Below, piece by piece: positions 16,562 through 48,542 of a DNA stretch of 64,000 nt (its first letter is position 1; each line of letters begins with the position of its first letter). The stretch spans positions 322,543 to 386,542 of the forward strand of contig CAWBMD010000002.1 in the NCBI GenBank assembly GCA_963789865.1. The letters are read 5' to 3'. The stretch is from an uncultured Chloroflexia bacterium (GTDB taxonomy: Bacteria; Chloroflexota; Limnocylindria; Limnocylindrales; CSP1-4). A model generated the notes under the pieces. The model worked only from the letters and a program-made list of their open reading frames with translations. It was not told the DNA's origin and did no database searches. The position numbers and the translations under genes were made by a program.

Positions 16562-17745
16562 TCAGCCGATGATCAGCAGCGGCTGAAGCCCGGACAGGAC
16601 CCCGCCCGGCTTCGGCTTCGCGAGGTCGGGCTCGGGGCCCCGGCCCTCGTCACGCTCCGCGAGCGCGGCGTCCAGCTGGGCGACGAGACTCGGGCAGGCT
16701 CGCACCGGAGGGCCGCCCCGTACGCCGGTCCCGATCTCCTTCATGAGCGCCTGCTCGCGTCGGGTCTTCGGCGCCGCGAACCGGAAGTGGATCGTGGTGC
16801 CAGCGGTGCCGCGGCTCCAGCTCGATCGTGTGGAGCGCCTTCACCGGCCCGCCCGGGGTGTCGAGGATCGTCCGGTCCGTGACGTAGTCGTACGGACGCC
16901 AGTCGAGGATCTCCTCGACGACGGCGTCCTTGCCGTGCCGGCAGTGATTCGCCGAGCCGAGCCCGCGCCGTCCCCCGGGCGCTCCCTTGATCGTGACCTC
17001 CGTCACCCAGGGCTGCCACGTCATCCGCTGCCCGGGCTTGGTGAGGAACTCCCAGGCGACCTGCGGCGGCACCCTCGTGGGCACCGAGACGATGAGGACG
17101 GATTCCTCCGGGGAGACGAAGACGCGACCGCGAGCCTCCTCCTCCCGCCAGCGGCGCTCGAGGTCGTGCACCCAGGCCGGCACGTCGCCGATCCGTTCGT
17201 AGGTCTCGACGTGCTCGCGCATGCCGAGCGCGGCCGGGTCGATGTCGGATGCATCGATGCACTGCTGGCTGATCAGCGCGTAGGCGTCGATACCCAGCCG
17301 CTCGACCACCTCGTTCTTCAGCAGCCGGTGCGCGACGATCACGTCGGACCCGAGCAGCTCCTGGCGTCCCGCGACCGTCTGATGGATCGCGGCGCCGTGA
17401 TGGACCACGAACTTGAGGTCGAGGTCCGGGATCCGGCTGCACGCGTTGCACTCGCACGACGTCGCCTGGCGGACGTCGCGACGGCGCCGGCGGAACCCGA
17501 AGTAGCAGCGCTCGATCGTGTCGAGGAGCATCGACCCGTCGATCCTCTCGACCGTCGCGAAGGTGAACGCGGCGTCGCCCTCCAGCTTGGCCAGCCGGAA
17601 GTTGGGCCGGAGGGCCGTGACGACGGCGCCGATGAGGTCCGCGAGGATGTCCTGCGCATGGTCCAGCTCGACGTCGGCGAGGTAGCCGGTGTACCCGGAG
17701 ATGTCGGCGATCAGGAAGCAGGTGGGTTGCGCGGCCGAGAGCATC
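16562..17745 (-). CDS. DUF2652 (cyclase-like) domain fused to an SRPBCC ligand-binding domain (1 frameshift near the 3' end)
   Basis: ATG at 17745. Pieces CFLIADISGYTGYL, LAKLEGDAAFTF, SCECNACSRIPDLDLKFVVHHGAAIHQTVAGRQELLGSDVIVAHRLLKN, then VPPQVAWEFLTKPGQRMTWQPWV. The tail MKEIGTGV... lies in another frame. Confidence 0.7.
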
Positions 17746-17972
17746 GTTCCTCGCCGGAGCGGGAGAAGCGACAGGCGCACTATACGGCGGGGCTCCGATG
17801 CCATCACCGCGTCGGCCACCCGATCGATCCGGAACGCGGCCGCCGCGGCCGTGACCCGGCGCGAGCCTGCGGACGCCCGGGCGCGCTCGGAGTAGTCTCC
17901 TCGGGCCGGCGGACCCGTTCGAAGGTCGGGTCGTCCCACCCACCTGCGCCCGTCGACCGCGAGGAGTCCCAC

Positions 17973-19328
17973 GTGCGCTACGACTTCGTGATCATCGGCG
18001 CCGGCCCGGCCGGCGAGGCGGCCGCCTACCTCGCGCGCTCGCGCGGCGCCAGCGTCGCCGTCGTCGACCGCGACCTGTTCGGCGGGTCGTGCCCGCACTG
18101 GGGTTGCGTGCCGTCGAAGTCGCTGCTCAACGCGGCCGCGCTCCACGCGGCCGGGCGGCGACTACCCGTGGCGGCGGGCGTCCGACCGGCGCGACTACAT
18201 GATCAACCGGGTCGATCGCGACTACCCCGACGACACGGGACACGTGCGCGGCCTGCGCGACGCGGGCGCCGACACGTTCCGCGGGCGAGGGTCGTCTCGA
18301 CGGCCCGGGACGCGTGGTCGTGCGGCACGAGGACGCGTGAGCACGTGCTCGAGGCGCGCACGTCGTGCTCGCGGTCGGCTCCGAGACGAAGATGCCGCCG
18401 ATCGAGGGCATCGACGCGATCCGCACCTGGACGCAACCGGGACGCGACGGCCGCCCGCGAGCTGCCGGCGAGCCTCCTGGTGCTCGGCGGCGGCCCCACG
18501 GGCGTCGAGCTCGCCCAGGTCTACGCGCGGTTCGGCGTCCCGGTGACGATCGTGCAGTCCGGCGCGCGCCTGATCCCGACCGATCACCCGCGCAACTCCG
18601 ACGGCCGCGCTCCGCGCCATGCGAGCGCGACGGCGTCGACGTCCGCCTGGGTGTCCGCGCCGTCCGCGCCCGGCCGGCCGGGGACGCCTGCTCAGCCCGA
18701 CATGATCGAGCTCGACGACGGGAGCACCGCCGCCGGCCATGCCGTGCTGCTCGCGGTGGGGCGCACGATCCCGCTCGGGGGGCTCGGGCTCGAGACGGTC
18801 GGCCTCGAGGCCGGCAGCATCCCGCGCGACGGGCGGCTGCGCCTGCAGGACGGCCTCTATCTCGTCGGCGACTGCGCCGGGCCCGAGCTCCACACCCACC
18901 AGGCGCACTACCAGGGCGAGATCGCGGTCAGGATGGCGCTGGGCGACGACGTCGTTCCCGACTACCGCGCGCTGCCCCGGGCGACGTACACGGACCCGGA
19001 GCTGGCGTCGGTCGGGGTGACGCTCGACGAGGCGAGGGCGGCGGGCCTGGACGCGTTCGAGGCGGTGGCCGACTTCCCGACGACGGCAAAGGGCTACTCG
19101 GTCGAGGCGGACTTCGGCCACGTGACGATCGTCGTCGACCGTGGCAGCGGACAGCTCGTCGGGGCCGCGATGGCCACGCCGGACGCCTCCGCCGCGATCC
19201 ACGAATGCGTGCTCGCGATCAAGGCGCGCGTCCCGGTCGCCGTCCTCGCCGAGACGATCCACGCATTCCCGTCGACGTCGCGGATCCTCAACGGGCTGTT
19301 CGCCGAGGCCGGCGCGAACCTCGGGTGA
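17973..19328 (+). CDS. class I pyridine nucleotide-disulfide oxidoreductase (dihydrolipoamide dehydrogenase / mercuric reductase-like), 3-4 frameshifts
   Basis: GAGGAG then GTG at 17973. Pieces YDFVIIGAGPAGEAAAY, redox-active GGSCPHWGCVPSK, LLVLGGGPTGVELAQVY, LYLVGDC, and dimerisation domain PRATYTDPELASVG...IHAFPSTS. Confidence 0.7.
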   Translation: MRYDFVIIGAGPAGEAAAYLARSRGASVAVVDRDLFGGSCPHWGCVPSKSLLNAAALHAAGRRLPVAAGVRPARLHDQPGRSRLPRRHGTRARPARRGRRHVPRARVVSTARDAWSCGTRTREHVLEARTSCSRSAPRRRCRRSRASTRSAPGRNRDATAARELPASLLVLGGGPTGVELAQVYARFGVPVTIVQSGARLIPTDHPRNSDGRAPRHASATASTSAWVSAPSAPGRPGTPAQPDMIELDDGSTAAGHAVLLAVGRTIPLGGLGLETVGLEAGSIPRDGRLRLQDGLYLVGDCAGPELHTHQAHYQGEIAVRMALGDDVVPDYRALPRATYTDPELASVGVTLDEARAAGLDAFEAVADFPTTAKGYSVEADFGHVTIVVDRGSGQLVGAAMATPDASAAIHECVLAIKARVPVAVLAETIHAFPSTSRILNGLFAEAGANLG

Positions 19329-19329
19329 C

Positions 19330-19368
19330 GGCGCGGGCGGCGCCGACTCGTGACGCCGCCCACGCGCC
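19330..19368. terminator. GC-rich hairpin between convergent genes (candidate bidirectional intrinsic terminator)
   Basis: ggcgcgggcggcg (19330-19342) pairs with cgccgcccacgcgcc (19354-19368): 13 bp with a 2-nt bulge and an 11-nt loop. No U-tract. Confidence 0.4.
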
Positions 19369-19376
19369 GATCGGAC

Positions 19377-20339
19377 CTACTTGGCGAGGCCCTTTGCCAC
19401 CAGCCATGCCTTGGCGACCACGGCGATGTCCTTGTTGTCCACGGACACCTGCTTGCCGAGGTCGGTGAGCGTGGTCGTGTCCATCGCCGCCGAGACGGCG
19501 TTGAGGATCGCCTCGAACCCCGCCTTGTCGGCCAGCTTGGCCAGGAGATCGTCCCGGACCAGCGGGGCGAGGTTCTCGGCCGGCTGGGTCTGCTTGTCGT
19601 CGGCGAGGACGACCCAGCCGTTCACCGCGATGTCGGGCTGCGTCGAGCAGAGCTCGCCGACGTCGATGGTCTTGCCCTTGAGGGCCTGCACCATCGGCGT
19701 GTCGCAGGCGGAGAGCTTGGTGGCGTTGCTCACGTCGATGCCGTAGGCGGTCTTCAGGGCCTGGGCGCAGACGGGATTGGTCGGGCAGTCGGTCGCCACG
19801 CCGAACTTGAGCTGGGTCTGGACCGCCGCGAGGTCGCTCATCTTCGCGAGCTTGAGCTGGTCCGCGGTCTCCTTGCGGACGACGAAGGCGTTCTGGTCCG
19901 CCGCCGGCGAGTAGTCCAGGACGGTGATCCCGCCACCCTTGTCGGCGAGGGCGGCCTGGAGCGCATTCTGGTTGGCCGCTGCGTCGCCGGTCTGCTTGCC
20001 GGGCTGGTAGTACGCCAGCCCGCTCCCGATGTACTCGGGCTTGAGGTCGATCTGGCCGCTCTCGAGGGCCGGGGCGGACACCTTGCGGGCGCCCATGCCG
20101 ATGCCGGTGCGGTCGACCTTGTAGCCGGCGGCTTCGAGAGCCTGCGCGTCGATCTCCGCCATCAGCTTGGCCTCGTAGAAGCCGTCGCTGCCGACCTTGA
20201 TCGTCGGGTCGCTGGCGCTCGCACCGCCGGGTGACGAGCCTGCTGCCGAAGGAGCGCTCGTGCTGCCCCCTCCCGTCGCGCAGGCGCTCACGAGCACCAG
20301 CAGCGACGCCCCGAGGGCGAGCGTGCGGGTCATCCGCAT
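19377..20339 (-). CDS. glycine betaine / osmoprotectant ABC transporter substrate-binding lipoprotein
   Basis: GGAGGA then ATG at 20339. Lipobox LVLVSACATGG. Pieces IKVGSDGFYEAKLMAE and DLKPEYIGS. Intact. Confidence 0.85.
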   Translation of the reverse strand: MRMTRTLALGASLLVLVSACATGGGSTSAPSAAGSSPGGASASDPTIKVGSDGFYEAKLMAEIDAQALEAAGYKVDRTGIGMGARKVSAPALESGQIDLKPEYIGSGLAYYQPGKQTGDAAANQNALQAALADKGGGITVLDYSPAADQNAFVVRKETADQLKLAKMSDLAAVQTQLKFGVATDCPTNPVCAQALKTAYGIDVSNATKLSACDTPMVQALKGKTIDVGELCSTQPDIAVNGWVVLADDKQTQPAENLAPLVRDDLLAKLADKAGFEAILNAVSAAMDTTTLTDLGKQVSVDNKDIAVVAKAWLVAKGLAK

Positions 20340-20445
20340 TGGGTTTTCCTCCATGCCGTTCTTCCCGGGCAGGGGCGCCCAGGGTCCGGCAACTCTAGCA
20401 GCGTGTCCGCCGATGGCCCCTGAGCGGACCTCCGCCCCGCCGCGC

Positions 20446-21193
20446 TCAGTCGTACGGAGCGGTGTCGGGCAGGGGCGGACCCGCGACTCCACGGACGCGG
20501 GCGCGGCTCGGGGCACCCGTCGACGCGGCGGACGCACGACGCTGGAGGCCGGCGAGCAGGCCTTCGGACGTCATCGCGAGCGCGGCCACGAGGACGACGC
20601 CACCGAACAGCATGCCGTCGTCGTTCTGGGCGATGCCGTCCACGATGAACCGGCCCAGGCCGCCCAGCGCGAACAGCGCCCCGAGCGTGACGGTCGCGAT
20701 CACCTGCACCGTGGACGAGCGGACACCGCCGAGGATCACCGCGAGGGACAGCGGGACCTCGACCCGCCGGAGGACCTGCGCCTCCGTGAGGCCCATCCCC
20801 CGGGCGGCCTGCACCACGTCGTCATCGACGCCGCGGATCCCCGCGTCGGCGTTCACGAGCACCGGCGGGATGGCGAGGACGACCATGGCGATGATCGTCG
20901 GGTACAGGGCGAACCCGTTGACCGGGTCGAACGCCTGGGTGATCGGCAGGACGAGCCCGATCAGCGCGAGCGACGGGACGGCGCGGCCGAAGTTCGCGAT
21001 GCCGACGGCGACCCCCGTCCCGCGCCGGGTGTGACCGACGTACGAGGCCGGCCGGGAGCGCGATCGCCAGCGCGATCAGGAGCGCGACGAGGGAGATCGC
21101 CACGTGCTCCTCGAAGCGCACGGGGATCCCGTTCGGTCCCGACCAGTTGGCGGGGTTCGTGAGCCATGCCACCGTCTCCGCGACGATGTTCAT
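20446..21193 (-). CDS. ABC transporter permease (osmoprotectant type), frameshifted
   Basis: Pieces MNIVAETVAWLTNPANW, GIANFGRAVPSLALIGL (other frame), and EAA-loop region DAGIRGVDDDVVQAARGMGLTEAQVLRRVEVPLSL. Confidence 0.7.
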
Positions 21194-21854
21194 CCCGGGG
21201 AGGCTCCGTCCGGCCGCGCGCCGCTGCCCAGGGCGTGAGCCGGCCCTGGAGGTGCACGAACAGGCGGTCCAGGCCGAGCGCCAGGAGGATCGTCAGGATG
21301 GCGCCGGCGTAGATCTCGGTCGGGAAGCTCCGTCGCGCGCCCTCGAAGATGAAGTAGCCCAGGCCGCCGAACGCGTCGCCGAGGGTCGCGGTGATCGTGA
21401 CCAGGCCGATCGTGGAGACGGTGGCGACCCGGAGCCCGGCCATGATCAGCGGGACCGCGAGCGGCAGCTCGACGCGCACCAGCCGCGACGTGCTCGTGTA
21501 GCTCATGGCGTCGGCAGCCTCCCGGACGTCGGGCGGGACGGCGTCGAAGCCGGCGACCACGTTCCGGAACAGGATCACGAGGGTGTACAGGACCAGCGGG
21601 ACCTCCGCCGTGAGCATGTTCAGGCCCACGATCGGGACGAGCGCGGCGAACAGCGCGAGGCTGGGGATCGTGTAGACGAGGCCGGCGACGAGCGAGAACG
21701 GCGGGTAGAGCCGCCGGCGACGGGCGGCGACCACGCCGAGCGCGAGGGAGATCGCGAGGCCGACGGCGATGGCGATGGCCGCCAGGTAGAGGTGCTGGCC
21801 CGTCCGGTACAGCAGCGCCGGAACGTGATCGGAGAGCCAGGCCCAGTCGATCAC
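21190..21854 (-). CDS. ABC transporter permease (osmoprotectant type); 3' end inferred
   Basis: GTG at 21854. Piece FDAVPPDVREAADAMSYTSTSRLVRVELPLAVPLIMAGLRV. A TGA overlapping the next ATG (21190-21193) is in frame only after a 1-nt correction. Confidence 0.7.
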
Positions 21855-21857
21855 GGC

Positions 21858-23063
21858 TCAGACGCGGGCTGCGGCCGCCGCGGACGGTTCGAGGATCGCA
21901 GACGCAGCGGGGAGGTCGCCGCCCGTGTCGGCGCGGAACCAGTCGGCCACCATCCCGACGGTCACGATGCCGCGGAGCCGGCCGTCGCGGTCCACCAGCA
22001 CCCCGGCCTGGACGTCGGCGTCGAGCAGCATCGACAGGGCGTCCTTCAGCGTCGTGCGGCGATCGAACTGCGGCGACACCGGGATCACGGCGCCCGCCGG
22101 CAGCGTCCCCTCGGCCGGCAGCGTGTGCTGGTCGAGCCAGCCGAGCGGCCGGTCCTGCTCGTCGACGAGGAGCAGGTACGGGAAGGGGTCGGCGAGGATT
22201 CGGGCTCGCGCCGGCCCGGCCGCATCGCCCGGTCGAGCGGTGATCGCAGGGCGGATGGGCAGCTCCGCCACCCTGACGAGCGACAGGCGCTTGAGACCGC
22301 GATCGGTCCCGACGAACTGCGCGACGAAGCCCGACGCGGGCCGGGCGAGGATCCCGGCAGGTGGACCGAATTGCATGAGGCGGCCACCGGTGGCCATGAC
22401 CGCGACGAGATCGCCCATCTTGATCGCCTCGTCGATGTCGTGGGTCACGAACAGGATCGTCTTGGCGAGCGTCTCCTGGAGCCGCAGCAGCTCGTTCTGG
22501 AGCCGCTCGCGGACGATCGGGTCGACCGCCCCGAAGGGCTCGTCCATCAGCAGGATGGGCGGGTCTGCCGCGAGCGCACGGGCGACGCCGACGCGCTGCC
22601 GCTCGCCACCGGACAATTGCGCGGGGTACCGGTCCCGGTAGGCCGCCGGATCCAGGCCGACGAGCGAGAGCAGCTCCTCCGCTCGCTCCCGGCGGCGCGC
22701 CGCCGGCCAGCCGAGCAGCCTCGGGACCGTCGAGACGTTCTCGCCGATGGTCTGGTGGGGGAAGAGCCCGACCTGCTGGATCACGTAGCCGATGCTGCGC
22801 CGCAGGTCGACGAGGTCGCGCGTCGCGACGTCCACGCCGTCCACCAGGATCCGTCCCCGGGTCGGCTCGATGAGCCGGTTGACCATCTTGAGCGAGGTCG
22901 TCTTGCCGCAGCCCGACGGCCCCACGAGGACGCAGATGCTGCCGGCCGGCACGGCGAGCGACAGGTCGTCGACCGCACCGGGCGACCCCTGGGCGTCGAG
23001 GGATCGGTCGTAATGCTTGGTGACGTGGTCGAACTCGATGGTGGCGGCCCGGTTGTCGGGCAT
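21858..23063 (-). CDS. ABC transporter ATP-binding protein with C-terminal tandem CBS domains (ProV/OpuA-like)
   Basis: Intact. Walker A GPSGCGKTT, signature LSGGERQRV, Walker B ILLMDEPFGAVD, and a CBS-like tail. Confidence 0.9.
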   Translation of the reverse strand: MPDNRAATIEFDHVTKHYDRSLDAQGSPGAVDDLSLAVPAGSICVLVGPSGCGKTTSLKMVNRLIEPTRGRILVDGVDVATRDLVDLRRSIGYVIQQVGLFPHQTIGENVSTVPRLLGWPAARRRERAEELLSLVGLDPAAYRDRYPAQLSGGERQRVGVARALAADPPILLMDEPFGAVDPIVRERLQNELLRLQETLAKTILFVTHDIDEAIKMGDLVAVMATGGRLMQFGPPAGILARPASGFVAQFVGTDRGLKRLSLVRVAELPIRPAITARPGDAAGPARARILADPFPYLLLVDEQDRPLGWLDQHTLPAEGTLPAGAVIPVSPQFDRRTTLKDALSMLLDADVQAGVLVDRDGRLRGIVTVGMVADWFRADTGGDLPAASAILEPSAAAAARV

Positions 23064-23222
23064 CGGCGACGCGGCTCCTGCGGCGGTGTACGCCGACCAT
23101 ACCCGATACGCCCGGCGGCTGAGCGCGGCATCCCGCCGACCCACGGGACTCCGCCCCGCTGCCCGTTGTCGTAGCCTGTCCTGTGCGCCGGCAGATTGCC
23201 GCAGAACCGGAGGTGGCGTCCC

Positions 23223-23609
23223 ATGCTCACCCAGGCCCGAACCCACGCAGCCCTCCCCGCAGCCGATCTCGACCGCGCCCGCCGCTTCTACGAGGAGGTT
23301 CTCGGCCTCGCTCCCGTCGAGATCTCGCCCGGCGGTGTCCTCTACGGGACCGCCGAGGGCACCCGGTTCCTGGTCTTCCCCTCATCCGGCCGAGCCTCCG
23401 GGACACACACCCAGATGGGATTCACCGTTGCCGACATCGAGACCGAGGTCGCCGAGCTCAAGCTCCGCGGCGTCGTCTTCGTGTCGTACGAGATGCCGCA
23501 GTTCGACGCGGCCACGTCGATCGCGACATTCCCCGGCACCCGCTCTGCCTGGTTCACGGACACCGAGGGAAACCTGCTGGGCGTTGTCCAGCTCGGATCC
23601 CCGGCCTGA
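23223..23609 (+). CDS. VOC family protein
   Basis: Intact. Pieces THAALPAADLDRARRFYEEVLGL and SAWFTDTEGNLLGVVQL. Paralog of 28174-28560. Confidence 0.75.
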   Translation: MLTQARTHAALPAADLDRARRFYEEVLGLAPVEISPGGVLYGTAEGTRFLVFPSSGRASGTHTQMGFTVADIETEVAELKLRGVVFVSYEMPQFDAATSIATFPGTRSAWFTDTEGNLLGVVQLGSPA

Positions 23610-23650
23610 CACCGGGCCCTCGCTCACTGCCGGTCGTGCTTGTGCCTCCG

Positions 23651-25261: not shown

Positions 25262-28007
25262 GCCACGACCTCGTCGATGGACATCGCGGCGCCCTCGGCC
25301 GCCAGGCGGACGACCTCGTCGGCGCCGAGCATCGCCCTCGCGGATGGCAGCTGCTGGTCGAGGAACTGGTCCACGAACGACGCGAGGCCGGCACCGGTGG
25401 CATTCGACAGGCTCCGGGCGGCCCCCCACAGCCGAGCGGCGCGCTCCGCGTCGCCGTCGTACGCGGCGAGGCCCGCCAGGTCGTCGAAGACCAGCGTGAG
25501 CCCGGCAGCGTCGCCCGACTCGCGGAACAGCCGCAGGGCGCCGTGGACCGACACGCGCGCCGCCTCGCCGTCGCCGTGCTTGAGCAGGGCCGCCCCCCTC
25601 ATGTGCAGCGCCCATGCCTCCATCGTCCGGTCGCCGACCCGCTGGTAGATCGCGAGCGCCTCGTCGAACTGGGCAATGCCGGCGGACGGATCGCCCTGGA
25701 AGTAGCGCTTGTTGCCCATCCCCCACAGGACGTTGGCCTGTCCCCGCTCGTCGCCGAGCGCCCGGTACAGCCCGAGCGCCTCGTCGAGCGCCACCCAGCC
25801 GGCACCGTCCGGATCGATGATCGCGGGCGCCTCGAGCGGGTCGATTGGCACCGTGAAGCAGAACGAGTAGTTGTAGAGGGCGTTGGCGAGCTCGACGCGG
25901 TTGCCGTCGGCGCGCCACAGCTCCACCGCCTCCGCGTAGGCGACGCGCATCGGCGCGATGTCCGCCTGCCACCAGCACACGCCTCCGAGCGCCTCCATGA
26001 GGCGCGCCCGCAGGACGGGCGACCTCACCGACCACGCGGCAGCCGCCATGGCATCGAGCCGGCGCCGCGCCTCGAACAGGTGGCCGCGCATCTGCCAGAA
26101 GCGCCAGAGGGCGAACGCGAGCCCGATTGCGAGATCCGCGTCCTCGGCGGCGGCACCACGATCGAGCGCAGCGCGGAGGTTGTCGTGCTCCAGCTCGAGC
26201 CTGTCGAGCCAGCGCCGCTGGTCCGGGCCGGCCAGCATCGGCCGCGCCTGCTCCGCGAGCCCCAGGAACCAGGTTCCGAACCGGGCGCGCACCACCTCGG
26301 CTTCGCCACGGGACGCCAGCATCTCCGCGGCGTACTCCCGGATGCTCTCCAGCATCTGGAAGCGCACCTCGGCCCCGTCGATCACCCGCAGCAGGCTCTG
26401 GTCCGCGAGCTCCCCGAGGCCGTCAAAGACGTCCCGGTCGAGCTCCTCGGCCGGGCCGCACACGGCCTCGGCAGCCTCGAGGTCGATGGCTGCGCGGAAC
26501 ACGGACAGCCGCTCCAGGAGGCGGCGGTCCCCGGCGTCGAGGATGTCGTAGCTCCACGCGATCGCGCCGCGCAGCGTCTGCTGCCGCTCGGGAAGGTCCC
26601 GCGAGCCGCCGCCGAGCGAGGCCAGCTGGTGGGTCAGCCGGGCGAGGATCGCGTCCGGGGACAGGACCTTGACACGTGCGGCCGCGAGCTCGATCGCCAG
26701 CGGCATCCCCCGCAGCCGCGCACAGATCGCGGCGACGGCTGGCGCATTGTCGTTGGTGACCTGGAAGTCGGGCTTGACGGCCGTGGCCCGCTCGATGAAC
26801 AGCCGCACGGATTCGTACACCGCGAGTCCCCCGGCGTCGACCTCCCGGTCCGCCACCGGCATCTGCGCGCGCTCGAGCGCCGAGAGTCCGGCCAGATCCG
26901 GCGGCGCCGGCAGCCCGGGCACCGGGTACTCGTGCTCGCCGGAGATCCGGAGGGCGGCCCTCGAGGTGACGACCAGCTTGAGGCCCGGGACCGAGCGGAG
27001 CAGGTCCGCGACCGCCGGCGCCGCCTCGACCACCTGCTCGAAGTTGTCCAGGACGAGGAGGACCGTCTTGCGGGCCATCCAGTCGACGACCAGGTCCCGC
27101 GCCGGCCGGCTTCCCGTCTCCGCGAGCCCGAGGGAGGCAGCGATCTGCGACGGCACGAGGCCGGGGTCTCGCACCGCGTCGAGGGGCACGAAGTAGACGC
27201 CATCAGGGAAGTCGTCGACGGCCGCGGCGGCGACCTCGAGCGACAGCCGCGTCTTGCCGGTGCCGCCCGGGCCGGTCAGGGTGACGAGCCGGTGACCGGC
27301 CAGGAGCGACAGGACGGCGGCGCGCTCCGCCTCGCGGCCGACGAACGAGGTGAGCTGGGCTGGCAGGTTGTTCGGCCGGGCGTCGACGGTCTTCGGCGGC
27401 GGGAACTCGCTGCGCAGGCCGTCGGCCACCAGCTGGTACAGGCGCTCCGGCTCGTCGAGGTCCTTGAGGCGGTGGCTGCCGAGGTCCCGGAAGGCGATAC
27501 CCTCCAGTGCCTCGTCGCGGTCGCGCACGAGCGCCCGCGTCGCGCCGGAGACGAGGACCTGGCCGCCGTGGGCGGCGGCGGCGATCCGGGCCGCGCGGTT
27601 GATATCGATGCCCACGAGCGAGCCGCCCTCGGTCCGCGCCTCGCCGGAGTGGACCCCCATCCGGACCCGGATCGTGGCATCGTCCGGCCACGGCTCCGCG
27701 GCGAGCGAGCGCTGCGCGGCCATGGCTGCGGCGATGGCCCCGCGCGCCGACCGGAAGATGACGAAGAACGAGTCGCCCTCGGTCCCCTGCTCCTCGCCGC
27801 CCCAGGCACTGAAGGCCTCGCGGAGGAGGGCGCGGTGGCGCTCCCGCACGGCTCCATACGCGCGCGTGCCGATCTCCTGCTCCAGCCGGGTCGATCCCTC
27901 GATGTCGGAGAACAGGAACGTCAGCGTCGCGCCGTCCGGCTCCGCGACCTGGACGGGCGGCTGGACGGGCGGTTGGACGGGCTCCGGGAACGGGGACGGT
28001 TCCTGCA
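25222..28007 (-). CDS. class III adenylate/guanylate cyclase domain - P-loop NB-ARC/AAA (STAND) - TPR repeat protein
   Basis: Intact, about 928 codons. Pieces LTFLFSDIEGSTRL, GDSFFVIF, GVHSGEA, IDINRAARIAAAAHGGQVLVS, and Walker A LTGPGGTGKTRL. The C-terminal half is rich in TPR-like helices. No C-terminal HTH is seen. Confidence 0.85.
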
Positions 28008-28173
28008 TCTGTGCTCCGCCGCGGACGAACCGGGTGGCGCCCTCGCGCACCGGCTGCAGGGCACATTCTGCGCGAACCGTCAACGCGCTGCCGTCGGGGT
28101 GCCGTCGGGGTGCTGGAGGGTGCGTGTAGGCTCTGCCGATCCACACGATCCACGACCGGAAGGGAACCTGTCC

Positions 28174-28560
28174 ATGCTCCACCAGCGCCGCGCCCACGCC
28201 ACGCTTCCGGTCTCGGACCTGGCGGCCGCCCGCGACTTCTGGGAGGACCGCCTCGGCTTCGTCCCGCTGGAGGAATATCCGACCGCCGTCCTGTACGCCG
28301 GTGCCGGCGGCTCCGTGTTCGCGATCTCCAGGGCATCCGCGCGGTCAACAGGCGGCAACACGCAGATGGCGTTCACCGTCCCCGACATCGGGGCGGAGGT
28401 CGCCGAACTCATGGGCCTGGGCATCGCGTTCGACACCTACGACATGCCCGGGCTCCGGACGGTCGACGGGATCGCCGAGGTGGGCGGCAACCGGGTCGCG
28501 TGGTTCAGGGACCCGGACGGCAACGTGATCGGCGTGATCGAGTTCGGCGGCCGCGCCTGA
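28174..28560 (+). CDS. VOC family protein
   Basis: ATG at 28174. Pieces AHATLPVSDLAAARDFWEDRLGF and VAWFRDPDGNVIGVIEF. It forms the tail of an otherwise spurious 1281-aa ORF. Confidence 0.75.
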   Translation: MLHQRRAHATLPVSDLAAARDFWEDRLGFVPLEEYPTAVLYAGAGGSVFAISRASARSTGGNTQMAFTVPDIGAEVAELMGLGIAFDTYDMPGLRTVDGIAEVGGNRVAWFRDPDGNVIGVIEFGGRA

Positions 28561-28631
28561 CCGCGCGGTCCTTCGCCGGGCGACCGCGCCCGGCGACGCG
28601 CGCTGCTGTCGCGCCCGGCTACCGCGCCCGG

Positions 28632-30038
28632 CTAGGGGACCCGCCGCTGGGTCGGGAGGATCACCTCGAAGCACGTCCCTCCCGGCCCGGACCTGACCTC
28701 GATCCGGCCCCCGTGGCGGCCCACGACGTTGTGCGAGATGTGGAGCCCGAGGCCGGTGCCGCTGCCCGGCGGCTTCGTGGTATAGAAAGGCTCGAAGATC
28801 CGCTCGCGGACCTCGGGCGGCATGCCCGGCCCGTCGTCGCAGATCTCGACGACCAGGTCCGCGTCCCGGACGAAGGCGTGGATCCGGATGCGGCCGTGCC
28901 CGCCCATCGCGTCGATCGCGTTGTCGAGGATGTTGGTCCACACCTGGTTGAGCTCGCTGCCGAACGCCTCGATCGCGGGGAGCCCTGGTTCGTAGTCTCG
29001 CTCGATCTCGATCCCCGACTTCAGCTTCGGGCGCAGGATCACGAGCGTGTTGTCCAGGCCGACCGTCACGTCCACCTGCTGGACCGGCGCCTGGTCCATG
29101 TACGAGTAGTCCTTCACGGCCTTCACGATCTCGGAGATGCGGCGGGCGCCCGTGCCCACCTCGTCGACCAGCGCGTGGATCTCGCTCCCGGACGCGACCC
29201 ACGCCGCCACGACGCCGAGGTCTGAGCCCGGGAACGCCTCGGCGGCGGGCCCAAGGTGCCCCGGTGCCCACCCCCCCGCGGCCAGCGTTGCCGCGAGCTC
29301 CGTGGCGTCCGCGACACCGCGTCCCTCCAGAAACCTCTCCAGGTCGTCGGCCCGGTCGCCCACCTCGAGCGGGTCGACGGAGGCCTCGGAGGCGGCGAGA
29401 CGCGCGATCTCGGTGCCCAGTTCGCCCACGACCGCTGCCTGGCGGGCATCCGCAACGACACGGCCCACGTCGCGCGTGGCGACGGCCCACCGGTCGAGGG
29501 CGTCGCGAAGCAGACCGGAGCTGCGCTGGACGGCCGCGGCGGGGTTGTTCAGCTCGTGCGCGAGCCCCGCGGACAGCGTCCCCAGGGCAGCCAGCTTCTC
29601 CCGCTCCCGGAGCAGCGCCTCGGTGCTCCGGAGGCGGCCGGTCACGGTCCGGATCATCGATAGCGCGGCCGAGGGGCGGGTGCGCACGAGCTCGAGCACG
29701 ACGTCCCTGCTGATCGTGATGATGCGGCTCGCTTCGATGGCACGGATGGTCGCCATCCGGGGTGATCCCTCGAGGACAGCCATCTCGCCCACGATCTCGC
29801 CGGGGCCCAGCCGGGCGATCGGGACGTCGGAGGATCGCGACCGCTTCACGACCTCCAGCTCGCCGGCCGTGATCACGAACAGCGTCTCGCCGTCGTCGCC
29901 CTCGGCGGCAACCACCTCGCCCACCGCCAGGTCGGCCGTGTCGCAGGCACCGGCGATCCAGTCCAGGTCATCTTCGTCGAGCGCCGCGAACAGCGGCACC
30001 CGGCGGAGCAGCGAGCGGTCTGCCGGCGAGAGCGTCAT
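28632..30038 (-). CDS. cyclic-nucleotide-binding domain sensor histidine kinase
   Basis: Intact. cNMP-binding [12 protein letters not shown]...[24 protein letters not shown]-box [18 protein letters not shown] boxes [17 protein letters not shown] and GSGTGLGL. Confidence 0.9.
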
Positions 30039-30080
30039 CGGGCGGGGGCCGTCATCGGGCAGGGGTCGTCATCGGGCGCC

Positions 30081-31744
30081 CTACAGCCCTGCGATGTGCT
30101 GGTGGACGAACTGGACCGCCATCGACCCCTCGCCCACGGCCGACGCGATGCGCTTCACCGAGCGTGACCGCACGTCCCCGGCGCTGAAGATCCCCGGGAC
30201 GCTCGTCTCGAGCATGAACGGCTCGCGCAGGAGCGGCCACCCGGGCACCTTGTCCCCGCTCCTGGTCAGGCCCGGGCCGGTCACCACGAACCCGGCCCCG
30301 TCACGTTCCACGATGCCGCCCAGCCAGTCCGTCCGTGGCGCCTGCCCGATGAATACGAACATCGCGGCCACCGGGAGCGTCTCGCGAACCTTCGGCTCGC
30401 TGTCCTCGACCTCCAGCGTCTCCAGCGCCTGGCCCCCGCCGACCGCGGTGACCGACGCGCGCAGCCGGACGGAGATGTTCGGGGTCGCCTCGATCTGGTC
30501 CACGAGATAGGCGGACATGCCGGCGCCCAGGGACCCGCCCCGGACGAGGATCGTCACGTGCTCCGCAAACCGGGCCAGGTACACCGCCGCCTGGCCGGCC
30601 GAGTTGCCGCCCCCGACGACAGCGACCCGCTGGCCGCGGTAGAACGCCGCCTCCGTGGTCGCGGCCCCGTAGTAGATGCCCGAGCCCGCGAGCCGGTCCG
30701 CGTCGGGCAGGTCCAGCTTCCGGTACTCCACGCCGGTCGCGATGAGCAGCGCCTGGCAGCTCAGCCGCGCACCGTCGCTCCAGGGTGACGACCTTGTACC
30801 GGTCGTCGATCGCGAGACCGGCGACGCCCTGCGGCGTGAGCACCTCCGCGCCCAGGCGGGTCGCCTGGGCCAGGGCTCGACGCGCGAGGTCCGCACCCGT
30901 GAGCCCGGCCGGGAAGCCCAGGTAGTTCTCGATCCGCGACGTCGTGCCGGCCTGTCCGCCAGGCGCCTCCCGCTCGACGAGCAGGGTCTTGAGCCCCTCG
31001 GAGGCACCGTACACGGCGGCCGCGAGCCCCGCGGGTCCGCCGCCCGCGATGACCAGGTCGTAGTACGGGAGCGCCGCGTGCTGTGCGCAGCCCGACGCGC
31101 TCGGCGATCTCGGCGTTCGACGGCCCGACGAGGTGGCTGCCGTCGGCGAGAACGACGAGCGGCTCGTGCGCGGCGTCGACGCCGGCGCTCGCGGCCAGCG
31201 CGATCGCCTCGGGGTCCGTCTCGATGTCGAGCCAGCGGTACGGGAGCTGGTTGCGCGCGAGGTAGTCCTTGATGGCGTGGCCGCGCGCCGACCACGCGTG
31301 GCCGACCACCCGGATCCCCTCGAACGGCGGGCGGAAGCCGGCCTGCCAGTCCGAGAGCAGGTCCTCGAGAACCGGGAACAGGCGCTCCTCGGGCGGGTCC
31401 CAGGGCTTGAGCAGGTAGTGGTCGAGGTGGATGGTGTTGATCGCCGCGATGGCGACCTCCGTGTCCGCGTAGGCCGTGAGCAGGACCCGTTTCGCGTCGG
31501 GATGAACGTCCGCGACGGCCTCGAGGAACTCGATGCCCGTCATGCCCGGCATCCGCTGGTCGGCCAGGAAGAGTGCGACCGGCGTGCCCCGCAGCTTCAG
31601 GCGCCGCGCCGCGTCGAGGGCAGCCTCGCCGCCTCCGGCGGCCACGATGCGGTAGTCGGAGCCGAAGCGGCCACGCAGGTCACGTTCGACGGCGCGCAGA
31701 ACCTGCGGATCGTCGTCGACCGAGAGGATGACCGGCTTGTCCAT
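30081..31744 (-). CDS. response-regulator receiver domain fused to a thioredoxin-reductase-like flavoprotein lacking the CxxC motif (2 frameshifts)
   Basis: GGGAGA then ATG at 31744. Pieces [11 protein letters not shown] and [13 protein letters not shown], then [55 protein letters not shown] and PGIFSAGDV. The stop lies 43 nt upstream of the kinase start. Confidence 0.8.
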
Positions 31745-31909
31745 TGTCGTCTCCCGCCGCATGACACGCTGCCTGAGGCCCGAACTCTAGCGACTCGACG
31801 GTGAGGGCGTCAGCGGGATGCCATTGACCGCTGCCGCTCGGGTACGCTCCGCGCGTCTCGGACGGGCGGCCGGCGCCGGCGCCCCCGCGGAGCCTGTGAG
31901 GAGCGAACG

Positions 31910-32191
31910 ATGAGCGACCGAACCGAAGCGCTGGCCCGGATCCTCGAGCGGGCGGAGCGCGTGCACGCGGTGGTGGCGGAACAGGCGGGCGGGGCCGATG
32001 CGGACTGGGCGCTGTTCTACGCGTGGTGGCTCCTGAACTGGTCCGACTTCGCGTCCGTTCTGGGCCGGACGCCGTCCCTGGCGGGGCTCACGGTGGAGCT
32101 CACGAACCTCGACGCCGCGTATCGGGCGGGCCCGCGGACACAGGCCTGGCCGATGGCGTATGCGGAGGCCCTCGACGGCGGCGAGGCCTAA
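31910..32191 (+). CDS. hypothetical protein (93 aa)
   Basis: Intact ORF with protein-like composition (WALFYAWWLLNWSDF). No family recognised. Confidence 0.45.
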   Translation: MSDRTEALARILERAERVHAVVAEQAGGADADWALFYAWWLLNWSDFASVLGRTPSLAGLTVELTNLDAAYRAGPRTQAWPMAYAEALDGGEA

Positions 32192-33108
32192 CCAGTCGCG
32201 GCGGCCTCGACGGCCCGCGTGTCGATCGTGACGACCCCCAGGCTCCCGATCCGTCCCGCGATCTCGACCTGTCGTTCGCCGGGCGGCACCCCGGCGCCCG
32301 CCCGGTCCCAGGTCGCGCGACTCACGAGAAGCTCGCCGGGGCCGGCTTGGCTGCCGAGACGGGCCGCGATGTTGACGGTGTCGCCGAGGGCCGTGAAGTC
32401 CAGCTTCTCGTCGCCGCCGACGACGCCGACGAACGCTTCGCCGGTGTGGACCCCGGCTCCGACCATGAGGCCCCGGCGGGCCAGCCCCTCCCGCTCGACC
32501 CCCGCCAGGATGGCCCGACCCGCCTCGATTGCGCGTTCGGCGTGGTTCTCGCCGGTGATCACCGGGATGAACAGGGCCATCACGCCGTCGCCGAGGAACT
32601 TGTCGATGATCCCGCCGTACAGGTCGATGGCCTTCGCGGCCGCCCCGTAGTAGTCCTGGATGAGCCGCCGGTACGCGGACGCGGACGAACGCTCGGCCAT
32701 GCCCGTCGAACCGCGGACATCCGCGAACACAACGCTGATCTCGACCTCCGCGCCGCCGGGACGCTTCGAGAGGTGGCCGAAGCACGCCCTGCACAGCAGC
32801 GGGCTGTCGCGCATCGGGCCGTGCCAGAACAGACGTGCCAGCGCTCCGCCCGGGCCGTGGAACGGCGAGGCGCACACCTTGCAGCGTGGCGACGACGGAA
32901 CGTGGCGCCAGAAGCGGCGCACCTCACGCAGGCTCGGGTCCTCGCCCGTCAGCAAGGCCCGCCATTGCTCGGCAACCTGATCGTTCTCGCCCACCGGCTC
33001 GATGGCGACCACCTCCCTTCGAGGCCCGGTTCGCAGCATCATCCACCCGCGATCGCGGCTGTCAAGCAATTCCCGCTCGATGCCCGAGTGCGGCATCATG
33101 TCCGCCAT
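32188..33108 (-). CDS. class III adenylate/guanylate cyclase with an N-terminal CxxC...CxxC zinc-ribbon-like segment
   Basis: Intact. Pieces PRCKVCASPFHG...LLCRACFGHL, VVFADVRGSTGM, IDKFLGDGVMALF, GVHTGEAFVG and LGDTVNIAARL. The start (33108 / 33165 / internal) is uncertain. Confidence 0.85.
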   Translation of the reverse strand: MADMMPHSGIERELLDSRDRGWMMLRTGPRREVVAIEPVGENDQVAEQWRALLTGEDPSLREVRRFWRHVPSSPRCKVCASPFHGPGGALARLFWHGPMRDSPLLCRACFGHLSKRPGGAEVEISVVFADVRGSTGMAERSSASAYRRLIQDYYGAAAKAIDLYGGIIDKFLGDGVMALFIPVITGENHAERAIEAGRAILAGVEREGLARRGLMVGAGVHTGEAFVGVVGGDEKLDFTALGDTVNIAARLGSQAGPGELLVSRATWDRAGAGVPPGERQVEIAGRIGSLGVVTIDTRAVEAAATG

Positions 33109-33742
33109 GATCCCGCCCAATGACCGCGGTTCCCGGAATCGCGGAACCCTCCTGCTCGCCGACATCTCGGGCTACACGGCCTTCCTCAACGGCGTCGCCC
33201 AGGCCCATCGGGCACTGATCGTCGAAGCCGACGAGCCGCCCCCGGCGTACGCCGTCCTGTCGCGGCTGCTCGACGCGATGCTGGCGGCGATCGAGCCGGC
33301 GTTTCGACTTGCCAAGTTCGAGGGCGACGCGCTGTTCGCGGTGGAGGATGCCGCCCTGGCCCACGGCGCGGCGATCCTCGACTGCATCCGCGCGTGCTAC
33401 GACGCCTTCCGCGAGCAGCTGGGCCTCGCCGGGTCGCAGTGGACGTGCACCTGCACGGCCTGCGCCCGGATCCACGACCTGGACCTCAAGTTCGTCGTCC
33501 ACCACGGCGACTACGTGGTCCAACGGATCGCGGGCCAGCAGGAGCTCGCCGGGCCCGACGTCATCGTGGCCCACCGGCTGCTGAAGAACCACGCCCGGGA
33601 CCTGGTCGGCGACCGGTCCTACCTGCTGCTCTCGGACGCGGTGCTCGAGGCGCTCGACGTCCCGACGGAGGGGATGCTGGCGGGCGTGGAGACCTACGAT
33701 GACCTGCCATCGCTGGGGGTGAACGTCCTCGCGCTCACCTGA
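33098..33742 (+). CDS. DUF2652 (cyclase-like) domain protein
   Basis: Intact. Pieces LLLADISGYTAFL, LAKFEGDALFAV and WTCTCTACARIHDLDLKFVVHHGDYVVQRIAGQQELAGPDVIVAHRLLKN. Paralog of the N-terminal half of 16562-17745. Confidence 0.8.
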   Translation: MSAMIPPNDRGSRNRGTLLLADISGYTAFLNGVAQAHRALIVEADEPPPAYAVLSRLLDAMLAAIEPAFRLAKFEGDALFAVEDAALAHGAAILDCIRACYDAFREQLGLAGSQWTCTCTACARIHDLDLKFVVHHGDYVVQRIAGQQELAGPDVIVAHRLLKNHARDLVGDRSYLLLSDAVLEALDVPTEGMLAGVETYDDLPSLGVNVLALT

Positions 33743-33769: not shown

Positions 33770-34360
33770 CTACAGGCGCTCCCCCGCCCTCACGGCCACC
33801 GCGAGCCGGTTCGCCGGCGGCGCGAGGGGACAGCTCCACCTGGGGTCGTAGGCGCACGAGGGGTGGTACGCGTAGTTGAAGTCCAGCACCAGCCGGTCGC
33901 CCGACCCGCCGAGATCCGCGCCCTTGACCGTGTCGAGCAGGTAGCGGCCCGCCCCGTACGTCTCGGCTCCTGACGTCGCGTCCCGGAACGGGATGAAGGC
34001 GCCGCCGCCGTAGGCCGCGATCCAGTACACCTGCAGGACGCCGATCGGCAGACGCACGCGGCCGATCCGTTGGAGCCCGAAGTCCTCGCCGGTCAGGCTC
34101 GTCACCGTGACCGGCTCAGCCGGCAGCGGCTCCACATCCGCCGCGAACCGCAGGGCCGGGTCGTACGACCAGTACGGGATCCCCCGGAAGCCGGCGCGTG
34201 CCTCGGGCGGCAGCGGTGACTCCGGGTGTTCGCGGAACAGGCGATCGCGCTCGACCCGGAAGCGTCCTGCCGCGCCGGCGGGGTCTCGCTCGGCGGAGGC
34301 ACGTACCTCCGCGTACATGGCCGCGACGCGCCGGCGCCAGTCGAGAAGCGTCATGGACAC
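33770..34360 (-). CDS. DUF1684 family protein
   Basis: Intact. Pieces LLDWRRRVAAMYAEV, GIPYWSYDPALRF, FIPFRDATSGAETYGAGRYL and DFNYAYHPSCAYDPRWSCP. Confidence 0.8.
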   Translation of the reverse strand: MSMTLLDWRRRVAAMYAEVRASAERDPAGAAGRFRVERDRLFREHPESPLPPEARAGFRGIPYWSYDPALRFAADVEPLPAEPVTVTSLTGEDFGLQRIGRVRLPIGVLQVYWIAAYGGGAFIPFRDATSGAETYGAGRYLLDTVKGADLGGSGDRLVLDFNYAYHPSCAYDPRWSCPLAPPANRLAVAVRAGERL

Positions 34361-34963
34361 ACGGTCACCTCCGTCGTCACGGCCCTGCGCTCGCCAGGGG
34401 CGCCGGGCCGCCTCATCAGCCCATCATCGCGCAGCTGGTGCCCGCCGTACTCCCGCATGGTGGGCACTCGCCATCGTTACCGACGCCAACCGCCTGAGAG
34501 GGCATCCCGGATGCCCACGTGGCGGGCCTGCGGGGCCGCGGCCGGGGACACGGTGGTCCGGCACGGCCCCCTGGCCGGCTCGTCTCCGCGTCCCCGCTGG
34601 CCAGTGCCCACGTAGCGGACATCCAGCAGGGGCGCGACGCCCGGTAGGCGGCGCGACCGGAGCGATCCACGATCAGGCTGGGCCGGGTAGCACCGGCATG
34701 CGCGTCGTCCCCGACGCAGCCGGCCCGCCAAGGACGAGACGCAAAACCGGCTCCGTCCGCCGGGGCCTTGCAGTTTCGTGGCGACCGGCGGGAGCCGGGG
34801 GCAGGCCCCTTGACGGAGCGGGGGCTCGCGGCGCATACCGGGGGCTGACAGGAGGTATTCACACGCGGCCTGCATATGTCGGCCGCCTCGGGCCGCGTCG
34901 AACCACGGGCGGCACCGACCTGTCGGCGCCCGTTGCAGTCTGGGCGCCTCCTGAGGTTGCACC

Positions 34964-35203
34964 ATGAAGGCTCACAGGCCACGCCACGTCGGTTGTCCGT
35001 CCCCGGAGGAGTGCGAGGTCGACCGGCGCGCCCTGTCGCTCTGGCCGCGGCTCGACCGGCGCGCCCTGTCGCGCTGTCGCCACGACCTTGTCTGCGTCGC
35101 CGGCCTCATCGAGCGCCGCACCAGCCTGCCGCCGACCGCCATCCGGCTGCTGCTCGCGTCGCGCCCCGCGACAAGCGAGGAAGTCGAGACCTGGTTCGGC
35201 TGA
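34964..35203 (+). CDS. small hypothetical ORF (79 aa) containing an in-frame 33-bp duplication
   Basis: ATG preceded by ctcctgaggttgcacc. Peptide ...VDRRALSLWPR LDRRALSRCRH DLVCVAGLIERRTSLPPTAIRLLLAS. No family recognised. Confidence 0.3.
   Translation: MKAHRPRHVGCPSPEECEVDRRALSLWPRLDRRALSRCRHDLVCVAGLIERRTSLPPTAIRLLLASRPATSEEVETWFG
35019..35072. repeat. 21-bp direct repeat with a 33-bp period
   Basis: tcgaccggcgcgccctgtcgc occurs at 35019-35039 and at 35052-35072. Confidence 0.85.
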
Positions 35204-37169: not shown

Positions 37170-37177
37170 TGTGACTG

Positions 37178-48531: not shown

Positions 48532-48542
48532 CCCGGGCCGCC

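Follow-up and report, generated by a model that had tools for sequence, protein, structure and literature searches.

What is understood of bacterial signaling by cyclic AMP (cAMP) and cyclic GMP (cGMP) comes mostly from transcription factors of the CRP type and from a small number of enzyme fusions. Our study deals with a 64-kb stretch of a contig from an uncultured Chloroflexia bacterium (CAWBMD010000002.1; the whole stretch is referred to here as the window), which carries a two-gene operon for a histidine kinase with a cyclic-nucleotide-binding (CNB) domain and for a receiver-flavoprotein, together with class III nucleotide cyclases and proteins of the DUF2652 family. All the parts of this locus are of known kinds; what is new is the combination of a CNB kinase, a cysteine-free regulator that resembles thioredoxin reductase (TrxR), and adjacent cyclases of the STAND and zinc-ribbon types.

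The architecture of the regulator, a receiver followed by a pyridine-nucleotide-disulfide oxidoreductase, is the same as that of the TrxB-type response regulators recorded in two-component censuses, and in a study of 17 thermophilic cyanobacteria the only strain column with a cNMP_binding kinase is also the only one with a TrxB-type regulator (PMC9953108). To the description of these regulators our study adds the absence of the CxxC motif, a glutaredoxin-like middle domain, and a near-constant pairing with a CNB kinase. A domain binding cyclic nucleotide monophosphates (cNMPs) is coupled to a flavoenzyme of the TrxR fold, as in the window, in ATII-TrxR (related to Cupriavidus metallidurans), a one-component fusion whose redox-centre cysteines have been described (PMC6544261). 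However, ATII-TrxR is a single polypeptide with cysteines, whereas the window encodes a His-Asp phosphorelay and an enzyme without CxxC; by analogy between the two, cNMP control of a redox enzyme may be a recurrent arrangement.

On the cyclase side, the mycobacterial multi-cyclase repertoire (Rv1264, which senses pH and lipids, Rv1900c/LipJ, Ma1120, and Rv0386-type proteins) resembles the window in joining several class III cyclases to different regulatory modules. Two of the window cyclases, located at 43 and 63 kb, have Rv1900c and Ma1120 as the best matches of their catalytic domains; compared with Rv1264, they fall below the Ad_Cy_reg cut-off and carry a MerR-like stretch before the regulatory domain. 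The layout of a third one, the cyclase-STAND-TPR protein (STAND cyclase), is similar to that of Rv0386-type cyclase-ATPase proteins, from which it differs by having no C-terminal LuxR-type helix-turn-helix (HTH) and by its Gly-Ser substrate pair. The window cyclases are physically clustered.

DUF2652 proteins, including Rv2561/Rv2562 of Mycobacterium tuberculosis, have been predicted to be nucleotide cyclases (Ramakrishnan et al. 2016, PMC4886424). In that paper, the pattern described for the mycobacterial group (both Asp, Lys-Glu, Ile in place of Asn, and Arg kept) is the one shared by the DUF2652 proteins of the window, and a fusion of DUF2652 to a polyketide cyclase is noted in one Bradyrhizobium protein; here the DUF2652-SRPBCC fusion is found to be an abundant and highly conserved family of 392 aa in soil metagenomes. 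In our loci, DUF2652 genes stand repeatedly beside canonical cyclases and DUF1684 genes. Finally, Pycsar anti-phage systems are alike in placing a class III-type cyclase gene next to the gene of a CNB-domain protein, but in the window the CNB domain is part of a histidine kinase that has its own response regulator, there is no TIR or membrane effector, and the context is one of housekeeping genes.

The core of the locus is the kinase and the receiver-flavoprotein, whose genes lie on the same strand with a gap of 42 nucleotides (nt). In our study, genes broken by frameshifts had their frames joined by hand before being translated and scored against Pfam (gathering cut-offs are abbreviated as GA). 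The kinase matches cNMP_binding with 67.5 bits (GA 27.5) and HATPase_c with 98 bits; HisKA reaches only 18.6 bits (GA 26.9), but the sequence shows the H-box (AHELNNP) as well as the N, G1, F, and G2 boxes. The N-terminal cNMP-binding domain is the only sensor of this kinase. The flavoprotein matches Response_reg with 54.5 bits and Pyr_redox_2 with 123 bits, and the DD, D (in DQRMP), T, and K (in KPWD) positions of its receiver are at least 90% conserved across the family. We collected 80 loci with relatives of the kinase (loci collected for comparison carry L-numbers) from Chloroflexota, Acidobacteriota, Cyanobacteria, Actinomycetota, Proteobacteria, and others. In 69 of them, the gene immediately preceding that of the kinase, in the same orientation, encodes a homolog of the receiver-flavoprotein with 45-90% identity; in one more, the homolog is directly downstream. 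The two proteins form a genuine cognate pair, and the two-gene operon that encodes them is found in many phyla. The pairing of the kinase with a receiver-flavoprotein had been proposed in an earlier note on this DNA, and our comparison upholds it while specifying the partner as a TrxR-like enzyme without CxxC. Relatives of the regulator number more than 8000 in the databases and span several phyla, and our literature searches turned up no work on the function of CNB kinases or of regulators joining a receiver to a TrxR-like enzyme.

The output domain of the flavoprotein is closest to the low-Mr thioredoxin reductases (best PDB matches with E about 1e-45). We nevertheless ruled out a true thioredoxin reductase because the CxxC disulfide is missing: the motif is replaced by YYGAAxTEA in 62 of 62 aligned family members, no column of cysteines is conserved anywhere across these 62 sequences, and in the alignment to thioredoxin reductase 7p9d the residues GAAT lie opposite CAIC. 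The score with the low-Mr TrxR equivalog TIGR01292 (238 bits) is also under its cut-off of 343. The motifs for FAD and NAD(P)H (GxGPAG, GGxNSAGQ, and GD) are conserved in the family, and residues 145-217, between the receiver and the flavoenzyme, match the mycoredoxin-like TIGR02200 with 37 bits and have no cysteines. The relatives of this protein are named ‘thioredoxin reductase (NADPH)’ or ‘FAD-dependent oxidoreductase’ in the databases. A small open reading frame (ORF) next to the regulator, overlooked by the earlier note, has no Pfam or NCBIfam match and is present, with 74-80% identity, only in the closest relatives (L003, L004, L320, L321, and a 93-aa gene of a JGI contig); this limited distribution rules it out as a universal third component of the operon.

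The phosphate-binding cassette of the kinase sensor has both Glu85 and Arg94, the residues in contact with the ribose-phosphate of the ligand. Among 96 related CNB domains, the Glu and the Arg are found together in 48, essentially the Chloroflexota-type group, and the pattern Gly-Glu...Arg-x-Ala is kept in the window kinase and in all its Chloroflexota-type relatives. Most kinases of Acidobacteriota and cyanobacteria have Phe or Tyr at the position of the Arg, and the Glu is often gone. By these residues, the sensor of the window kinase looks competent for cNMP binding, but the same holds for only part of the family.

Two cyclases of different construction flank the operon. The STAND cyclase matches Guanylate_cyc with 27.7 bits (GA 21.9) and TPR_12 with 33.7 bits. 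Its residues 220-350 reach 29.7 bits with AAA_16 (GA 32.6) and also stay under the cut-offs of nSTAND1, NACHT, and AAA_22; thus, the cyclase in the domain series assigned by the earlier note scores above GA and the sequence has the Walker A motif GPGGTGKT, but the NTPase models remain short of their thresholds. The equivalent neighbors of the operon in other genomes score 82-97 bits with AAA_16 and, in L038, 45 bits with NB-ARC, above the cut-off. On the other side, the zinc-ribbon cyclase matches Guanylate_cyc with 56.4 bits (GA 21.9). We predict it to be an adenylyl cyclase of subclass IIIb because of its Lys-Thr substrate pair and its best matches, the closest solved structures being Cya2, CyaB, and CyaC. 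Some class IIIb cyclases respond to bicarbonate. The CxxC...CxxC motif that precedes the zinc-ribbon cyclase domain is kept in L004 and in two paralogs of L007.

Catalytic residues were read from an alignment of 140 cyclase domains, in which the columns of divergent members may be off by one residue. All four Guanylate_cyc domains of the window possess both metal-binding Asp, the transition-state Asn, and the Arg. At the substrate positions, the STAND cyclase carries Gly-Ser and the neighbors elsewhere that combine a zinc ribbon with STAND carry Arg-Thr, from which the products of these enzymes are not predictable. Since the substrate-specifying pairs in the window differ (Lys-Asp, Lys-Thr, Gly-Ser, and, in the DUF2652 proteins, Lys-Glu), the nucleotide produced may differ from one enzyme to another. 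The gap that separates the kinase from the STAND cyclase contains a VOC gene, also missed by the earlier note, with 66% nt identity (blastn) to the VOC gene at 23221-23610; no copy is found at this gap in L003, L004, L320, or L321, and the gene has been duplicated into it.

Beyond the zinc-ribbon cyclase stands a divergent gene for a stand-alone DUF2652 protein, which matches PF10851 with 93.6 bits (GA 22.1); the second DUF2652 protein of the window, fused to SRPBCC, scores 104.7 bits with the same model and 43.3 bits with Polyketide_cyc2/SRPBCC (GA 27.4). The alignment of DUF2652 with class III cyclases (hhalign) has a probability of 95.6% and an E-value of 1.2e-8. When the AlphaFold model of the stand-alone protein (pLDDT 62, moderate) was compared with the PDB by Foldseek, the top 50 hits were all class III cyclases, the best with an E-value of 7e-7 and a TM-score of about 0.5. 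Invariant residues of DUF2652 are the two Asp, the Lys, the Arg, and four cysteines (C100, C117, C119, and C122); Ile replaces the Asn, and Glu occupies the second substrate position. These comparisons identify both window proteins as cyclase homologs, predicted to be cyclase-like, and are in line with the prediction of 2016. In the window, in L004 (5550-6138), and in the JGI contig, the stand-alone DUF2652 gene has a DUF1684 gene as its neighbor, and in L087 (18122-18709) a DUF1684 gene adjoins the SRPBCC-fused form, which hints at a functional partnership between DUF1684 and DUF2652.

Special attention was given to whether the linkage of cyclases to the operon is kept in other genomes. In the close relatives (L003, L004, L320, L321, and the JGI contig of 49.7 kb), whose regulators are 90-92% identical, the order regulator, kinase, STAND cyclase, MFS transporter, and then VOC, flavoprotein, and opu genes is kept in all five. 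L004 has the block of zinc-ribbon cyclase, DUF2652, and DUF1684; the JGI contig retains DUF2652 and DUF1684, and a gene joining a zinc-ribbon cyclase to AAA_16 lies 4.5 kb further on. The JGI contig also has a DUF2652-SRPBCC gene right after the opu operon, as in the window, beside yet another cyclase, and one related contig gathers the operon, three cyclases, and two DUF2652 genes inside about 27 kb. Thus, of the linkage that the earlier note proposed to look for in related genomes, the order around the STAND cyclase is conserved in the five close relatives, but the zinc-ribbon cyclase/DUF2652 block is missing in three of them. Stronger evidence than that of the close relatives comes from distant Chloroflexota, whose kinases are 40-50% identical to that of the window: different types of cyclase are found directly beside the operon and in varied orientations, namely zinc-ribbon-cyclase-AAA_16-TPR proteins in L009, L011, and L024, two tandem zinc-ribbon cyclases in L007, and a cyclase-NB-ARC-TPR protein in L038. 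A cyclase linked to the operon also occurs in L077, a proteobacterial metagenome-assembled genome (MAG).

As a neutral control we used loci centered on the opuA ATPase; nadB had been tried for this purpose and was dropped because its relatives are almost all Burkholderiales, which makes it uninformative on the Chloroflexota background. The control loci from Chloroflexota, which add up to 369 kb, contain no cyclase, DUF2652, or CNB domain, and those from Actinomycetota (1037 kb) contain a single cyclase. In comparison, the operon flanks have 13 cyclase domains over 498 kb (none in the 369 kb of Chloroflexota control; conditional binomial P = 7e-4), and the immediate adjacency of cyclases to the operon is over-represented with respect to random placement within the flanks (P about 1e-3). 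For the window itself, taking the 95% upper bound of the Chloroflexota control rate, four cyclase domains in 64 kb give a Poisson P of 0.002 and six cyclase-type domains a P of 2e-5. A cyclase lies within 10 kb in 9 of the 37 loci with the canonical Glu/Arg and in 2 of the 43 without (Fisher P = 0.02). The crowding of cyclases around the operon exceeds chance, and most of the associated cyclases directly adjoin it.

The observation made in the earlier note withstands these analyses, and its interpretation does so in part. Its domain calls (cyclase, DUF2652, SRPBCC, cNMP_binding, HATPase_c, Response_reg, and Pyr_redox_2) are confirmed by the Pfam search of the corrected proteins, with start coordinates that agree within 1 nt; its four canonical cyclase domains and two DUF2652 domains are all above the Pfam cut-offs, and the unusual density of these genes that it described is borne out by the empty Chloroflexota control. 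The kinase is also, as the note had it, the single dedicated cNMP receptor, given that the Pfam scan of all other coding segments of the window yielded no additional cNMP_binding, GAF, CRP-type, or phosphodiesterase domain. The idea that several cyclases feed this one kinase is plausible for the two that flank it, but the three outlying genes (the DUF2652-SRPBCC gene at 16.5 kb and the cyclases at 43 and 63 kb) show no specific link.

On balance, we think it probable that the window holds a lineage-conserved cNMP neighborhood in which the flanking cyclases would signal to the CNB kinase and, through it, to the receiver-flavoenzyme, with the three outlying genes standing apart. The STAND/TPR and zinc-ribbon modules would sense signals and switch on the flanking cyclases, and the resulting cNMP would bind to the CNB domain of the kinase, whose binding residues are intact. 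Binding would alter autophosphorylation and phosphotransfer to the adjacent receiver, as suggested by the operon structure and by the catalytic and acceptor residues, and phosphorylation of the receiver would switch the NAD(P)H/FAD oxidoreductase, the output being enzymatic and not transcriptional. More tentatively, the operon could be a two-component system, functionally unstudied in the literature searched, that takes cNMP as input and has a receiver-switched, cysteine-free TrxR-like enzyme as its post-translational redox output; in Chloroflexota it would be hard-wired to adjacent cyclases gated by STAND/TPR or zinc-ribbon modules, with DUF2652 proteins possibly acting as partner subunits of the neighboring canonical cyclases in heterodimers like the eukaryotic C1-C2.

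It is important to note that several of our observations weigh against this proposal. In the window, the kinase and the STAND cyclase are separated by the opposite-strand VOC gene, and the substrate pair of this cyclase is the non-canonical Gly-Ser. The zinc-ribbon cyclase/DUF2652 pair is not beside the operon in L003, L320, or L321, where unrelated genes are found instead, and since close relatives share their general gene order, conservation among them is weak functional evidence. About 69 of the 80 operon loci have no cyclase inside 10 kb, so that the pairing of cyclase and operon is not obligatory. The cNMP-contacting Arg is lost in about half of the kinase family, and the output enzyme lacks the TrxR disulfide that would point to its substrate.

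Part of this evidence would also be expected if the genes were located together without being coupled, a paralog-rich and rearranging stretch having accumulated cyclases that signal to receptors elsewhere. Unrelated housekeeping genes (opu, MFS, VOC, xanthine-dehydrogenase-like, and nadABC) are interspersed in the window, the cyclase complement varies between close relatives, the extra cyclases near the Rv1264-like type are evenly spread over ±10 kb, and cNMPs diffuse, so that function needs no linkage. Nevertheless, we regard this explanation as rather unlikely, considering that distantly related Chloroflexota place cyclases of differing types and orientations directly beside the operon, that the cyclase neighbors track the intact cNMP-binding cassette, and that the neutral control loci are empty of cyclases. 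The loss of the cassette residues described above, which affects half of the kinases (those from Acidobacteriota and cyanobacteria), together with the absence of nearby cyclases around most members, could instead indicate that the CNB-fold domain of the kinase binds another ligand, as some domains of the CRP/FNR family do, while the cyclases use unlinked receptors; the retention of Gly-Glu...Arg-x-Ala in the window kinase and its Chloroflexota-type relatives, and the presence of cyclase neighbors mainly in the subgroup with the canonical cassette, make this improbable. Still less credible is a role in defense against phages, similar to Pycsar or to NLR-like systems, in which the STAND/TPR cyclase would sense infection and its cNMP would activate a CNB effector: effector-STAND-TPR is a typical architecture of bacterial NLR-like sensors, the operon-adjacent cyclases have non-canonical Gly-Ser or Arg-Thr pairs, and PADLOC models match the cyclase domains (PycC, 65.6 bits for the zinc-ribbon cyclase and 76 bits for the L024 neighbor) and the CNB domain of the kinase (Pycsar effectors, 40-41 bits), but these matches cover shared domains only, no TIR, transmembrane, or nuclease effector is present, the CNB domain sits in a complete histidine kinase that has its cognate regulator, the neighbors are housekeeping genes in a kept order and not a defense island, and in most genomes the operon is without any cyclase, for which reasons we do not assign the locus to Pycsar or to defense.

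The outlying genes take part in a different association. The 43-kb and 63-kb cyclases are paralogs with about 67% identity that match Guanylate_cyc with 36.2 and 37.4 bits (GA 21.9), Ad_Cy_reg (PF16701) with 22.7 and 22.8 bits (GA 28.6), and MerR_1 with 17.7 and 22.0 bits, respectively. Both have the adenine-specifying Lys-Asp pair, and the 43-kb gene has all six canonical catalytic residues. The 43-kb protein aligns to Rv1264 (1y10) over residues 92-396 with an E-value of 2e-13, through the regulatory and catalytic domains, and both cyclases are likely homologous to Rv1264, with scores below the strict cut-off for Ad_Cy_reg membership. The MerR-like stretch before the regulatory domain is short and scores at or below the cut-off. 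The earlier note had suggested that a DNA-binding HTH gates these two cyclases, which is now doubtful because they align to Rv1264 with its regulatory domain included.

Relatives of these Rv1264-like cyclases are common in Limnocylindria and Actinomycetota. Their flanks contain 24 cyclases in 620 kb of Chloroflexota and 17 in 651 kb elsewhere (P = 1e-5 with respect to the neutral control), spread evenly over ±10 kb and not adjacent, and they also hold 8 DUF2652 and 9 CNB genes. A copy of the DUF2652-SRPBCC gene with 80-88% identity adjoins the Rv1264-like cyclase convergently in L085, L089, and L093 and divergently in L095 and L096, and lies within a few kb of it in L087 and L094. Copies of the window cyclases with 90-95% identity (L081-L084) share no other gene with the window. 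The earlier note had suggested a link of the outlying genes to the kinase, but these near-identical cyclase copies sit in unrelated neighborhoods, and in relatives the 43/63-kb type pairs with the DUF2652-SRPBCC type or with small CNB proteins: the DUF2652-SRPBCC gene and the two Rv1264-like cyclases constitute a second recurrent association, a crowding of signaling genes similar in kind but with no specific tie to the kinase. Stand-alone CNB proteins of about 145 aa are encoded no more than about 1 kb away from Rv1264-like cyclases in L097 (11216-11731), L107 (12222-12647), and L149 (7399-7860), and another one within 10 kb in L134 (19060-19494). These small proteins are possible dedicated receptors for the Rv1264-like cyclases; the window has none of this kind.

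The window, from a soil genome of Chloroflexota, has a G+C content of 72%, which falls to 0.685-0.70 over 50-60 kb. The closest relatives of the kinase (82-83% identical) come from MAGs labeled Candidatus Limnocylindria/Limnocylindrales or ‘uncultured Chloroflexia’, and the nearest relatives of the other window genes are likewise in ‘Ca. Limnocylindria’-type MAGs. Four of the eight signaling genes are frameshifted, with six frameshifts in total: one in the DUF2652-SRPBCC gene (near 16800-16840), two in the receiver-flavoprotein gene (near 30765-30778 and 31083-31088), one in the 43-kb cyclase (near 43927), and two in the 63-kb cyclase (near 63486 and 63610). Codon-position composition reveals many broken genes. 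Intact proteins of 553 aa match the corrected receiver-flavoprotein over 100% of its length with 96-97% identity. For the DUF2652-SRPBCC protein (393 aa after correction), intact homologs of 392-393 aa at 82-91% identity form at least 120 clusters, and the corrected 43-kb cyclase has its counterparts in uninterrupted 399-codon genes at 91-95% identity. Because such intact homologs of the same length exist, we read the frameshifts as sequencing errors, most likely long-read indels left uncorrected across the whole contig; the nearest genomes are long-read soil MAGs with breaks of the same kind. Single frame changes also split unrelated genes of the window (for example at 4000-5200, 17950-19330, and 36200-39230), among them lipB, a pyridine-nucleotide-disulfide oxidoreductase, and xanthine-dehydrogenase-like subunits. 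Pseudogenes as the main reading were ruled out by the intact homologs together with these breaks in unrelated genes.

The features of the window are collected in the table. According to Pfam, the intervening genes encode a glycine-betaine-type ABC transporter (opu), an MFS transporter, VOC/glyoxalase proteins, flavoproteins, a xanthine-dehydrogenase-like enzyme, NadABC, an aldehyde dehydrogenase, IclR, PanB, and others.

Table. Signaling genes and other features of the 64-kb window, in order of position.
Feature	Position	Strand	Basis
DUF2652 + SRPBCC/polyketide_cyc2	16562-17744	-	Pfam
VOC/glyoxalase, paralog partner	23221-23610	+	blastn
Cyclase-STAND-TPR, 928 aa	25222-28008	-	Pfam
VOC/glyoxalase between kinase and STAND cyclase	28174-28560	+	Paralog of 23221-23610
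cNMP-binding histidine kinase, soluble	28632-30038	-	Pfam
Receiver + glutaredoxin-like + TrxR-like flavoprotein, 553 aa	30081-31744	-	Pfam, NCBIfam
Small ORF, 93 aa, divergent from response regulator	31910-32191	+	Conservation in close relatives
Cys4 zinc-ribbon-like motif + predicted class IIIb cyclase domain	32188-33108	-	Pfam
Stand-alone DUF2652, divergent from zinc-ribbon cyclase	33098-33742	+	Pfam
DUF1684 gene	33770-34360	-	DUF1684, 140 bits
c-di-GMP-II-GAG-like riboswitch element	34842-34929	+	Rfam RF03169
ORF of 79 aa downstream of riboswitch-like element	34964-35203		No family match
Rv1264-like cyclase (43-kb), 399 aa	43139-44339	+	Pfam, 1y10 alignment
nadB	46010-47683		
nadA/nadC	47662-49707		
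ARPP-1 domain protein	59676-60763	+	PF20208, 182 bits
tRNA gene, just upstream of 63-kb cyclase	62218-62290	+	
Rv1264-like cyclase (63-kb), paralog of 43-kb cyclase	62677-63878	+	Pfam

The riboswitch-like element, the third feature that the earlier note had overlooked, is a full-length match to the Rfam c-di-GMP-II-GAG aptamer with 57.6 bits (gathering cut-off 40) and an E-value of 8.5e-9. The DUF2652 gene is 1.1 kb away from the element, and the 79-aa ORF, which is followed by a VOC/glyoxalase gene, comes 35 nt downstream of it. The element reads GGC where the consensus has GAG (in GGCGAGACC). Seven related loci lack the element, and a pattern scan of metagenomes gave 8 chance matches, with no Rfam hit among them. 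The nadB gene and the adjoining nadA/nadC genes have 60-83% protein identity to those of Burkholderiales (Rubrivivax, Piscinibacter, and Aquabacterium) and are shared with only one Chloroflexia-labeled MAG (L160), which suggests either a horizontal transfer into the lineage or a chimera of assembly or binning. The ARPP-1 domain gene is located 2 kb before the second Rv1264-like cyclase.

Taken at the strength given above, the locus points to a widespread alternative route of cyclic nucleotide signaling, which would lead from a cyclase to a cNMP-binding histidine kinase and from there to a receiver-controlled flavoenzyme. The output enzyme of this route is misnamed ‘thioredoxin reductase’ in databases despite its missing catalytic disulfide. 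Because candidate cyclases, receptor, and output stand side by side, the whole pathway is testable with a handful of recombinant proteins. The locus also provides a genomic handle on DUF2652, a predicted cyclase family with a member in M. tuberculosis, which is here repeatedly paired with canonical cyclases.

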